Origin: Escherichia coli
GTDB lineage: Bacteria; Pseudomonadota; Gammaproteobacteria; Enterobacterales; Enterobacteriaceae
Assembly (NCBI RefSeq): GCF_050920415.1
Contig: NZ_CP169309.1
DNA length: 64,000 nt
Direction: 5' to 3' (one strand)
Part shown: positions 3,698 through 33,253 of the stretch, piece by piece
How positions within the stretch are numbered: position 1 is the stretch's first letter
How the letters are laid out: every line of letters begins with the position of its first letter
Translations under genes and position numbers: made by a program
The notes under the pieces: generated by a model
Told to the model about the DNA's origin: nothing
Database searches by the model: none
What the model saw: only the letters and a program-made list of their open reading frames with translations

Positions 3698-4507
3698 TTA
3701 TAGGTCTCTGAATATCTCAGAAAGATTGAATTTTTTATAGTCCCTCTCTTGGATATTTCCATTTGATATCAATCGATTCATCTCTTCAACAAAATAATTT
3801 ATATCATCACATTTGTTATTATCCGGAAGATCTGAATAATTATAATTCCACCACTTTATTCTCAACAATTCATCAATAATATTTGAATCAAATCTAAATC
3901 TGATTATTTTTGCAGGAACTCCTGCAACTATGGCATATGGTGGCACATCTTTGGTAACAACGGAATTGGCAGCAATAACAGCACCATCACCTATTGCGAT
4001 GCCACCTTTCAATACAACATCATTTCCTATCCAGACATCGTTTCCTATAATCGGATTTTCAGGTTTGGTAATGAATGGTTTCAATGTCCATGGCCGTTCG
4101 AACTCACTCAAGGCAAATTTATCAAATTCACCGTTATAAGTCATCATGTGAGTAGTAAAACGATTCATAGGATGATTTCCACCCATTATTTTTACATTTG
4201 ATGCAATACTACAAAATCGTCCTATATGTATATTCCCTGAAAAATGACAAGTTGGAAATGAAAATGCACCTACACTGGAAAAATTTTTTACAGGCATTGT
4301 TGAATATTCTTCAGCAATAACATTCTCTTCAATTGATATTTTGTCACCTTTTGAGAAAAGAAATAAATTCCTTTCTTTGTAAGACTTCTTCCCTTTATGA
4401 TTTAAAAATATTTTATTATCCATGCAAAATTCAAAGTGTTTTTTCGTCCACCTAAAGGTAATGGTTTTATTTTTATCTTCCGTGAATTTATATAACTGTA
4501 CGTTCAT
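3698..4507 (-). CDS. Hexapeptide-repeat (left-handed beta-helix) O-acetyltransferase, xenobiotic acetyltransferase (XAT/CatB/Vat)-like, with N- and C-terminal extensions; start codon uncertain
   Basis: ORF 3698..4507 (-), 269 aa; core ...NHPMNRFTTH...GNDVWIGNDVVLKGGIAIGDGAVIAANSVVTKDVPPYAIVAGVPAKIIRFRF is a typical XAT hexapeptide signature; strongly AT-rich unlike flanking genes; not recalled at this site in K-12. Confidence 0.8.
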   Translation of the reverse strand: MNVQLYKFTEDKNKTITFRWTKKHFEFCMDNKIFLNHKGKKSYKERNLFLFSKGDKISIEENVIAEEYSTMPVKNFSSVGAFSFPTCHFSGNIHIGRFCSIASNVKIMGGNHPMNRFTTHMMTYNGEFDKFALSEFERPWTLKPFITKPENPIIGNDVWIGNDVVLKGGIAIGDGAVIAANSVVTKDVPPYAIVAGVPAKIIRFRFDSNIIDELLRIKWWNYNYSDLPDNNKCDDINYFVEEMNRLISNGNIQERDYKKFNLSEIFRDL

Positions 4508-15130: not shown

Positions 15131-15221
15131 GTGACTCCTCCGGCAAAGCGGAAGTTTATCACTTGTGCGTTATAACGGACAAATGCTACGGTACCTGTAC
15201 GCTATAACGCACGAGGTGACC

Positions 15222-16394
15222 ATGCGTCTGTTTTCTATTCCTCCACCCACGCTACTGGCGGGGTTTCTGGCGGTATTAATTAGCTACGCCAGTTCAGCGG
15301 CAATAATCTGGCAAGCAGCGATGGTCGCCGGAGCCACCACTGCACAAATCTCTGGCTGGATGACGGCGCTGGGGCTGGCAATGGGCGTCAGTACGCTGGC
15401 TCTGACATTATGGTATCGCGTGCCTGTTCTCACCGCATGGTCAACGCCTGGCGCGGCTTTGTTGGTCACCGGATTACAGGGACTAACACTTAACGAAGCC
15501 ATCGGCGTTTTTATTGTCACCAACGCGTTAATAATCCTCTGCGGCATAACGGGACTCTTTGCTCGTCTGATGCGTATTATTCCGCACTCGCTGGCAGCGG
15601 CGATGCTGGCCGGAATTTTGTTACGCTTTGGTTTACAGGCGTTTGCAAGTCTGGATGGTCAGTTTACGTTATGCGGTAGTATGTTGCTGGCGTGGCTGGC
15701 GACGAAAGCTATTGCGCCACGGTATGCGGTTATTGCGGCGATGATAGTTGGCATCGTAATCGTTATTTTACAAGGTGACGTTGTCACAGGGGATATTGCC
15801 TTTAAACCCGTTCTCCCCGCTTATATTGCCCCTGAATTTTCGTTTGCTCACAGTCTGAGCGTTGCACTCCCCCTTTTTCTGGTGACGATGGCATCGCAAA
15901 ACGCACCGGGTATTGCGGCAATGAAAGCGGCCGGGTATTCGGCTCCTGTTTCGCCGTTGATTGTATTTACTGGATTGCTGGCGCTGGTATTTTCCCCTTT
16001 CGGGGTTTATTCCGTCGGTATTGCAGCAATCACCGCGGCTATTTGCCAAAGCCCGGAAGCGCATCCGGATAAAGATCAACGTTGGCTGGCAGCTGCCGTC
16101 GCAGGCGTTGTTTATTTGTTTGCAGGTCTGTTTGGTAGCGCCATAACTGGAATGATGGCCGCGCTGCCCGTGAGTTGGATCCAGATGCTGGCAGGTCTGG
16201 CGCTGTTGAGTACCATTGGCGGCAGTTTGTATCAGGCGCTGCATAATGAGCGTGAGCGCGACGCGGCGGTGGTCGCATTTCTGGTAACGGCAAGTGGACT
16301 AACGCTTGTCGGGATTGGTTCTGCGTTTTGGGGATTAATTGCCGGTGGCGTTTGTTACATGGTGTTAAATTTAATCGCTGACAGAAACCGATAA
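15222..16394 (+). CDS. ydcO: BenE-family inner-membrane transporter YdcO
   Basis: ORF 15165..16394 (+); YdcO-like sequence from ATG 15222 (MRLFSIPPPTLLAGFLAVLISY...), highly hydrophobic. Confidence 0.9.
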   Translation: MRLFSIPPPTLLAGFLAVLISYASSAAIIWQAAMVAGATTAQISGWMTALGLAMGVSTLALTLWYRVPVLTAWSTPGAALLVTGLQGLTLNEAIGVFIVTNALIILCGITGLFARLMRIIPHSLAAAMLAGILLRFGLQAFASLDGQFTLCGSMLLAWLATKAIAPRYAVIAAMIVGIVIVILQGDVVTGDIAFKPVLPAYIAPEFSFAHSLSVALPLFLVTMASQNAPGIAAMKAAGYSAPVSPLIVFTGLLALVFSPFGVYSVGIAAITAAICQSPEAHPDKDQRWLAAAVAGVVYLFAGLFGSAITGMMAALPVSWIQMLAGLALLSTIGGSLYQALHNERERDAAVVAFLVTASGLTLVGIGSAFWGLIAGGVCYMVLNLIADRNR

Positions 16395-16395
16395 T

Positions 16396-16425
16396 AAAAA
16401 GCGCCATCTTACGATGGCGCGACTG
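16396..16425 (-). terminator. Hairpin terminator in the 34-bp ydcO/ydcL convergent gap, U-run on the minus strand
   Basis: gcgccatc-ttac-gatggcgc stem-loop at 16401-16420, flanked by A-run on + strand (T-run on - strand). Confidence 0.55.
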
Positions 16426-16428
16426 GAA

Positions 16429-17097
16429 TTACTTTTTGTTAACGTCAAACATGGTGGCATCGGTCGCCATGTCATCAATAACTTGCTTAATATTCTCGAA
16501 AGCCATTGGCGTACTTTCATTATTCAGGTCTTTACCTTCGCCCTGACGAACGACTTTGATAACCGGTTTATTAGTAGCTGCATCAATTAGCTCACCTTCA
16601 AAATACAGGCGAGTATCCATGGTACGGTGGCCCGTCGCCATTTGCGTCCCCGCGACCACTAATGCGACAGGAACCACTTCATAGAATTGCAGCCCTTCTT
16701 TGCTGGTATCTACACCGGTAATGGCCCCACGGAAAATCAGACTACGCGGCCCAGCGGTGGTAACCAGTGGTTTACGCTGCGCAATCGCTTCTTTCATTTC
16801 GGTGTTGGTATAACTCAAAATTTTATCCAGAACTTTCTGCCCTACCTGGGTAGATGGTTTCGGTACCGGATAATAAGTGACTGGGTTCCAGACGATGCTG
16901 TCATATTTGCTTTGATCAAAACTCGGGTCTACCCAACGTAAAACAGGCTTACCCGTTGCAGAAGTTGTTTCTTTTAAATCAGAGTAATTGTTTAAAAAGC
17001 CAGAATATTTATCTGGCTGGGTGATTTTAGAGGCACAACCAGACAGAGCCAACAAGCCGCATAAAGCTGCAACTTTCGCAAATGATGTGGTACGCAT
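16429..17097 (-). CDS. ydcL: Lipoprotein YdcL (DUF3313)
   Basis: ORF 16429..17097 (-), 222 aa; lipobox MRTTSFAKVAALCGLLALSGCASK. Confidence 0.9.
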   Translation of the reverse strand: MRTTSFAKVAALCGLLALSGCASKITQPDKYSGFLNNYSDLKETTSATGKPVLRWVDPSFDQSKYDSIVWNPVTYYPVPKPSTQVGQKVLDKILSYTNTEMKEAIAQRKPLVTTAGPRSLIFRGAITGVDTSKEGLQFYEVVPVALVVAGTQMATGHRTMDTRLYFEGELIDAATNKPVIKVVRQGEGKDLNNESTPMAFENIKQVIDDMATDATMFDVNKK

Positions 17098-32395: not shown

Positions 32396-33253
32396 TTAAC
32401 CCGCTATACTCGCACTCGTCGGCCCTGTTTCAATACTACCCACAATATCAATAATGTGACCCCAGAACATATCATCATCGTTATAATATAATGAATAATC
32501 TCCATTATAATCCATAGCCAACTCAACAAGATTTATTCTGCTAACAAACATATCTTCTGTAATTTCTTCATCTTCTTCATCTTGAAGCCAGTCATTGGCC
32601 AATTCAGTTAATTGTTCTGCAGCATATTGGCGGAACTCCTGATCTTTTTGTTGCATATGACTACATAAAAATCGCAGATTTTCAAAAGCCTGTTGCCAGG
32701 TATATCTATCATTCTTATCTACTTCCATAGATACAGAAATATTCTGATCATTCCATTTCACTTCCCCGCTAAAACAGGAGTAGTCTTTATTAAGCACGAA
32801 AGTCCCCAATTGCTGATCTTCAACAACAACTGGTTTGCGATATTCTTTCTGAATATTGAGCAGTTCCTCACACTGAACATGACTTTCAAGAACCTCAAGA
32901 ACATAAAACCGATTATAAAACTCGGCTAACTTTCCTTCCGGCACGGTCCTGTCAATCAAATCTCGTACTCTCAGGCGATATATACCACCAGACTGCATAT
33001 TAAACGGCCACGCACAGCCTTGAGTTTTCTCATTTTCTTCTGTTATCAACCAGTTGAGTCGTCCATCTCCAACGTGAATTTCTCCCGTAGTCAGACTCTT
33101 CCAGGCGAGTAAGTGTTCAACCGCTGTCCAGTAATTATCACCGTTACTCTTACCCGCGCCACCGCCAGTATCACTAAGAAGAACGATAATTTCTTCTTCT
33201 GTATCTTTAAATGTATGACTAAATTTTTTGTATTCTTCAGAATTTAAGTCCAT
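32396..33253 (-). CDS. Hypothetical acidic cytoplasmic protein (285 aa), no recognisable family; strain-variable islet gene
   Basis: ORF 32396..33253 (-); AT-rich coding sequence in an AT-rich 1.4-kb segment between ydcF and hrpA; no TM or signal peptide; Asp/Glu-rich C-terminal half; not recalled in K-12 at this site. Confidence 0.75.
   Translation of the reverse strand: MDLNSEEYKKFSHTFKDTEEEIIVLLSDTGGGAGKSNGDNYWTAVEHLLAWKSLTTGEIHVGDGRLNWLITEENEKTQGCAWPFNMQSGGIYRLRVRDLIDRTVPEGKLAEFYNRFYVLEVLESHVQCEELLNIQKEYRKPVVVEDQQLGTFVLNKDYSCFSGEVKWNDQNISVSMEVDKNDRYTWQQAFENLRFLCSHMQQKDQEFRQYAAEQLTELANDWLQDEEDEEITEDMFVSRINLVELAMDYNGDYSLYYNDDDMFWGHIIDIVGSIETGPTSASIAG

Follow-up and report, generated by a model that had tools for sequence, protein, structure and literature searches.

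Excision of elements of the IS200/IS605 family is scarless and leaves the target motif (TAM) abutting the flank of the right end (10.1101/2023.03.14.532601). The omega-RNA of the family is made from the 3′ end of tnpB together with the right end of the element, the flank beyond the right end being its guide, and TnpB cuts the vacant site composed of the TAM and the right-end flank, which is the donor joint (10.1101/2023.03.14.532601). In the case of TnpB2 of ISGst2 the TAM is TTTAT (Meers et al., 10.1101/2023.03.14.532601). In E. coli K-12, the element IS609, which by its proteins and its ends belongs with this family as described below, is found between ydcO and ydcL as a 1,748-bp insertion carrying insQ (ydcM), which is its tnpB, and a tnpA pseudogene. 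We compared it with the same locus in a 64-kb stretch of E. coli DNA, referred to here as the window, in which the whole element is missing and the two flanks are joined between positions 16393 and 16394. We consider 16378..16428 of the window to be an unoccupied allele of the chromosomal IS609 site, adjoining the rho-independent terminator of ydcL, and would place the probability of this reading at about 93%.

The ydcO/ydcL junction compared with K-12

The gene ydcO, which codes for a BenE-family transporter, is present at 15183..16394 on the + strand, and its TAA stop is at 16392-16394 in the list of open reading frames (ORFs). Convergent to it is ydcL, coding for a DUF3313 lipoprotein, at 16429..17097 on the − strand, with the stop codon at 16429-16431 and a hairpin as the predicted terminator. 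Both genes were identified from the ORF list, from Pfam (BenE at 1.7e-158 for the ydcO product and DUF3313 at 5.7e-63 for the ydcL product) and from the RefSeq annotation of strain MFDS1022581, which is 100% identical here, was mapped onto the window by an offset of 12,899 and has the names ydcO (BenE family transporter) and ydcL (DUF3313). The ORF ends leave an intergenic spacer of 34 bp between the convergent genes (16395..16428), exactly as an earlier note made from the letters of this DNA had stated, and the hairpin that it placed in the spacer was found as a perfect stem-loop of 8 bp and 4 nt at 16401-16420. The same note had reported that insQ is absent from the site. This holds across the whole 64-kb window, in which blastn with the K-12 element as query gave no IS609 DNA and tblastn with InsQ as query gave no TnpB-like coding sequence. 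That the ydcO/ydcL spacer of the source strain is free of IS609 is a confirmed observation.

In the orientation of the window, the gene order of MG1655 is rlhA, sutR, ydcO (+), insQ (−), tnpA pseudogene (+), ydcL (−), tehB and tehA. In K-12, insQ does lie between these two genes, where the earlier note had placed the transposase gene of an IS609 family, and the condition that it had set for its own refutation is thereby not fulfilled by the K-12 coordinates. The position was right and the labels were not, as the product is predicted to be a TnpB-type nuclease (it is annotated in the MG1655 record as 'RNA-guided endonuclease TnpB family protein') and the family is IS200/IS605. On reading both junctions we find ...aaccgata, then the 1,748 bp, then ataaaaagcgcc... 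in K-12, and ...aaccgata followed directly by ataaaaagcgcc... in the window. Alignment with the K-12 ydcL-insQ-ydcO region, which had been proposed as the check, thus gives for the window junction the K-12 flanks with 1,748 bp cleanly removed. The K-12 and E20 junctions fix the insertion point base-exactly between 16393 and 16394, as a shift of the boundary by one base either way breaks the match. The window being equal to the K-12 left flank plus the right flank, the number of duplicated target bases is 0 and so is the number of lost flank bases. Homologous genomes have the element at exactly this same point with collinear flanks, and the flanks of the window are only about 95-97% identical to those of K-12.

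The point of insertion falls within the stop codon of ydcO, one base outside the interval 16395-16428 to which attention had been drawn originally. In occupied genomes IS609 interrupts this TAA (16392-16394), and the K-12 YdcO has the C-terminus ...NRY, with a TGA taken from the end of the element, as opposed to ...NR and stop in the window. This difference is of use for annotation, in which the hairpin should also be labelled as the ydcL terminator. The hairpin itself is 7 nt away from this point, and genomes that carry the element have it undamaged. Therefore, of the suggestion that the hairpin looks like the unoccupied target, the empty site is retained and the hairpin as target is given up, since the insertion is between 16393 and 16394 and K-12 has the hairpin in one piece.

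IS609 and its target motif

The domains found by Pfam in InsQ are OrfB_IS605, Cas12f1-like TNB and HTH_OrfB_IS605. InsQ matches the solved structures of ISDra2 TnpB over nearly its full length (E = 1.9e-54) and, when aligned to its top PDB match, an AI-designed TnpB-type nuclease, keeps the GLDAG, IEDL and NADVNGA motifs. By these features insQ is predicted to code for a TnpB-type RNA-guided nuclease and not for a transposase. The transposase of IS609 is TnpA, a Y1 HUH enzyme, whose gene is a pseudogene in the K-12 copy and is divergent to insQ in the element; the intact TnpA of the O157:H7 copy is a Y1_Tnp protein according to Pfam. Both ends of IS609 have similar subterminal hairpins with a GCCCTGAAGGA core, which are on the same strand and in direct orientation and are not inverted repeats. 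Such direct subterminal hairpins, along with the domains of InsQ and TnpA, are hallmarks of the IS200/IS605 family, so that IS609 is a member of this family and not a family of its own, the RefSeq label on tnpA being 'IS609 family'. At the ydcO/ydcL site tnpA has a nonsense codon at codon 96 in K-12 and at codon 76 in E20, and insQ is of full length.

On the top strand (the sense strand of insQ) the occupied locus reads 5′-...GCGCTTTTTAT followed by the left end, and at the other side the right end closing in GTCAA followed by TATCGGTTTCTGTCAG.... From the K-12 and E20 junctions, the target motif (TAM) in the window is 5′-TTTAT at 16394..16398 on the − strand, and the left end of IS609 follows immediately on its 3′ side, after 16394 and before 16393. 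This TTTAT (16398..16394) is formed by the last five bases of the TTTTTAT in the T tract of the ydcL terminator. The same motif (ATAAA, which is TTTAT on the top strand) is present at the left end, with no duplication, where IS609 is inserted within a DUF3251 gene near tsx and also where it interrupts a TetR gene located between ytfB and yjfZ. An Arsenophonus plasmid carries an element of 77% identity that has TTTAT at its left end as well, again with no duplication. The motif rests on these four independent sites only (three IS609 loci and the Arsenophonus element), and since TTTAT stands at the left end of all four we take it as the target. A plasmid match in H156 was considered as a new insertion site and was rejected on being the ytfB site again. 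In strain ST2747 the tsx-site copy has the same tnpA stop as K-12, and an intact TnpA of 143 aa was found only in the ytfB-site copy of O157:H7, among the copies examined. Literature searches combining IS609 with TnpB and insQ with ydcO returned nothing on the target of IS609 or the activity of InsQ.

The GC skew is negative on the + strand throughout the window. The − strand, which bears TTTAT, is therefore the G-rich one and has the sequence of the lagging-strand template, and it is the lagging-strand template that the IS200/IS605 family prefers, as is the case for IS608 and ISDra2. By the mechanism of the family, a single-stranded circular IS609 would have been integrated by TnpA into the lagging-strand template, on the 3′ side of TTTAT, the − strand having here the sequence of that template.

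The hairpin after ydcL

The stem-loop at 16401..16420 has the sequence GCGCCATC-TTAC-GATGGCGC, in which 16401-16408 pair with 16413-16420 (8 pairs, 6 of them G-C) and 16409-16412 form the 4-nt loop, and it begins 8 nt past the ydcL stop. It folds at −18.7 kcal/mol on the + strand and at −16.3 kcal/mol on the − strand, with z-scores of −4.35 and −3.04 respectively, and on either strand 0 of 200 shuffles folded as well. A terminator scan called the hairpin terminator-like on the − strand with TTTTTATTAT as the tail; this T tract is at 16391..16400 (−) and overlaps the stop codon of ydcO. As there is no T run directly after the stem on the + strand, the hairpin would be at best a weak terminator for ydcO. 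The GC-rich 8-bp stem, the 4-nt loop and the TTTTTATTAT tail are as in enterobacterial rho-independent terminators, with the stem conserved across genera and the loop varying. Unlike in typical terminators of this type, the T tract here enters the stop codon of a convergent gene.

The same 8-bp stem is found with other loops in K-12 (TAAC as against TTAC in the window), in the cryptic Escherichia clade and in Citrobacter koseri and C. farmeri. Citrobacter are the nearest usable outgroups, as all Escherichia YdcL collapse into one 90% cluster in the protein search. Both species retain the synteny rimL-ydcK-tehA-tehB-ydcL ... ydcO-sutR-rlhA, and their ydcL-ydcO interval contains two genes, for an EamA-family transporter and an AraC-family regulator, and no IS. 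The GCGCCATC/GATGGCGC stem follows directly after ydcL in both, with different loops and a T-rich tail, which in C. koseri is TTTTTTTAT. On account of the two extra genes, the direct ydcL/ydcO junction is taken to be specific to Escherichia, and Citrobacter cannot polarise the IS state. The stem is thus kept after ydcL when another gene is beside it, which indicates that the hairpin travels with ydcL whatever the neighbour. Its pairs are invariant across the compared genomes and hence carry no covariation evidence. The earlier note had called the hairpin a terminator, and the scan and the conservation in Citrobacter now assign it, within the 34-bp spacer, to ydcL. From these comparisons the hairpin is predicted to be the intrinsic terminator of ydcL and not a part of IS609, and this terminator would be older than the Escherichia ydcL/ydcO junction. 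Apart from terminating ydcL and ending ydcO, the site most likely has no role.

A different view of the hairpin would be that it is itself derived from a mobile element, as an IS footprint, as a REP/BIME-type repeat or as a target structure recognised by a transposase. It is only 7 nt off the insertion point and its loop is TTAC, which is the target of IS608. But the loop is TAAC in K-12, where the hairpin is intact next to the element as in other occupied genomes; the other IS609 sites are within genes and have no such hairpin; and the same stem is found in C. koseri and C. farmeri by the EamA-family gene with the IS absent. The hairpin is also unique in the window and matches no Rfam family. 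As judged from these sequences the origin from a mobile element is already contradicted, and we give it next to no credence. Two particular candidates of this kind were tried and rejected. A REP/BIME-type repeated palindrome does not fit, as the hairpin pattern occurs once in 64 kb (0.03 expected by chance), is still single copy with 2 mismatches allowed, and the window junction has in Rfam a chance-level snoRNA match only, with no family for the hairpin. The loop TTAC as an IS608-like target fails since the element is not in the loop.

Frequency of the empty and occupied states

The survey covered 5,426 complete E. coli genomes, with the junction query matched in 5,416. The contiguous empty junction was found in 2,135 of the 5,426 (about 39%), including O157:H7 strains and strain 042, and IS609 was found at the site in 3,250 (60%), where a genome is counted as occupied if its match spans 80% or more of a K-12 query, 54% of which is the IS. 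The empty allele is common, and the presence or absence of IS609 is a known polymorphism that is explained by the known biology of the family. In one genome an IS4-like (ISVsa5 family) transposase is annotated inside the matched span.

Over all of its length the window has an identity of only 93.6-96.8% to K-12, and its ydcO/ydcL allele is common, at an identity of at least 99.8%, to three complete genomes only (MFDS1022581, N96 and RMDEC465). The low identity to K-12 and the rarity of the allele point to a divergent E. coli lineage as the source. The finding records an IS609-free allele in this lineage; such an allele of the ydcO/ydcL locus could serve as a strain marker, and the wider significance is small.

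Some relatives are in neither of the two states in a simple form. In HH45 (NZ_CP116411.1, 953-994 of the locus) the sequence between the exact boundaries consists of 20 nt from the start of the right end, GCT and about 19 C, and this internally deleted IS609 may be a genuine scar or may have arisen in the assembly. MOD1-EC7003, which belongs to the cryptic Escherichia clade, has beside the ydcL terminator a collapsed IS609 of about 42 nt in which the right-end and left-end hairpins are fused (NZ_PTRE01000219.1, 216-330 of the locus); it is the only match listed in a species-wide scan of genome contigs with the terminator pattern. This genome has lost sutR and the greater part of ydcO, along with much of tehA. 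The remnant indicates that IS609 at some time also occupied this site beyond typical E. coli. EcN_Sk, which is labelled as Nissle-derived, has a 21.5-kb stretch (NZ_CP172017.1:2615278-2636780) that is 99.8-100% identical to K-12; compared with K-12, IS609 is seamlessly absent from it, hicA and the 5′ portion of hicB are missing, and it has a hokB-trg deletion. Its state may be due to natural excision, recombination or engineering.

Origin of the empty state

Excision in this family being scarless, the sequence alone cannot separate a site that was never occupied from one that was excised. Most likely the lineage of the window retains the pre-insertion state. Both the dead tnpA copies and the linkage of occupancy to the flank haplotype speak for an old and mostly vertical polymorphism. 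The K-12 and E20 copies at the ydcO/ydcL site differ at 17 of 1,748 positions (1%). All genomes were searched with a K-12 sequence from which the element had been removed seamlessly in silico. Of 2,110 empty genomes, just 1 had flanks more than 99.1% identical to K-12 in this search, and in 2,183 genomes the best match was at least 99% identical to the K-12 flanks. As few empty genomes reach at least 99%, we infer that these 2,183 are mostly occupied.

The junction could instead be a restored donor joint, which would mean that an ancestor carried IS609, that TnpA excised it scarlessly and that the loss was fixed. By sequence this is the same as the pre-insertion state, and scarless excision is the normal chemistry of the family (10.1101/2023.03.14.532601). 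An intact tnpA is present at another IS609 locus in O157:H7, but tnpA is a pseudogene in both copies examined at the present site (K-12 and E20). EcN_Sk has a seamless empty site whose flanks match K-12 at 100% over 9.5 kb on one side and 4.3 kb on the other, and the IS609 remnant in Escherichia sp. MOD1-EC7003 is accompanied by the window-type allele on the ydcL-side flank, both being consistent with excision; yet all losses that can be seen in the data are imprecise, with scars left behind, and occupancy is tightly linked to the flank haplotype. There is also no IS609 anywhere in the window, and an intact TnpB is expected to counteract the loss (10.1101/2023.03.14.532601). We therefore regard excision in the ancestry of the window as unlikely, and prefer the retained pre-insertion state.

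Loss of IS609 by ordinary deletion or recombination, with no transposase taking part, has its examples in HH45, which keeps 20 nt of the right end and a poly-C run, and in MOD1-EC7003, which keeps the fusion of about 42 nt of the right-end and left-end hairpins. The window junction, however, is base-exact, with no remnant and no flank loss, and a chance deletion must hit both boundaries exactly. An imprecise deletion is already contradicted by this exact junction. Homologous recombination with an empty allele would give it, but is equal to inheriting the empty allele. Ordinary loss of this kind is thus very improbable, and a lineage that has kept the state before insertion is again the preferred reading.

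Proposed guide RNA and donor joint

The 16 nt flanking the right end in occupied genomes, TATCGGTTTCTGTCAG, are at 16378..16393 on the − strand of the window, and are the putative guide-matching target of the omega-RNA of K-12 InsQ. They are identical (16/16) to the K-12 right-end flank, and TTTAT with TATCGGTTTCTGTCAG on the − strand (16398..16378) is unique in the window. For the K-12 element all Rfam matches were below threshold. Three of these sub-threshold matches, to HgcC (E = 0.021), RAGATH-18 (E = 0.067) and sot0042 (E = 0.39), are at the 3′ end of insQ and the right end of IS609 and overlap at 2243-2369 (−) of the K-12 locus sequence, the match to HgcC extending 10 nt into the ydcO flank. 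HgcC and sot0042 overlap the 3′ ends of tnpB genes. RNAs derived from RAGATH-18 have been reported as guide RNAs of IS607 TnpBs (PMC11061315). The stacking of the sub-threshold matches suggests that they mark the IS609 omega-RNA, which would then be one that fits no Rfam family above threshold. The guide role of TATCGGTTTCTGTCAG is proposed on the basis of the family rule and of the sub-threshold HgcC match that reaches into the K-12 flank.

In occupied strains, the omega-RNA of TnpB would carry TATCGGTTTCTGTCAG as its guide, and the empty allele of the window has the architecture of a donor joint, first the TAM and then the guide match, and would be cut by a TnpB so guided. The layout consists of TTTAT and the 16/16 match to the K-12 right-end flank, for an omega-RNA predicted from sub-threshold Rfam matches and in a window with no resident IS609. 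As in the donor joints of IS608, ISDra2 and ISGst2, the TAM abuts the right-end flank with no duplication and no scar; in contrast to these, the guide and the omega-RNA of IS609 are predictions made here from sequence alone. If InsQ is active, the empty allele would be a natural InsQ target, one that fits the putative guide of the K-12 InsQ/TnpB perfectly, and it is a convenient native substrate for testing the activity of the IS609 TnpB.

It has further been considered that the ydcO/ydcL junction is a natural and partly frozen homing-drive locus. The grounds for this are that TnpB is intact, that TnpA is dead repeatedly and that the proposed guide matches the empty allele perfectly. If it were so, empty alleles would be cut and converted when an occupied allele enters by recombination, and this would explain how the insertion reached the cryptic Escherichia clade. 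We regard this as a quite doubtful proposition.

Other differences of the window from K-12

The window lacks, at about 12057, the 445-bp segment of K-12 with hicA and the 5′ portion of hicB. EcN_Sk has identical breakpoints, although its flanks and those of the window are about 5% divergent. In the region 46417-63043, ydbA is present as an intact ORF of 1,845 aa, which in K-12 is split by IS2 and IS30; genes for a YdbH-like protein, a 2-hydroxyacid dehydrogenase, a pyruvate:flavodoxin oxidoreductase and a porin come close after it, and nothing in the window corresponds to the paa operon of K-12. Two genes of the window, at 3698-4507 (−) and 32396-33253 (−), are in segments with no K-12 counterpart, and their products are a hexapeptide-repeat transferase and a DUF7021/DUF2262 protein.
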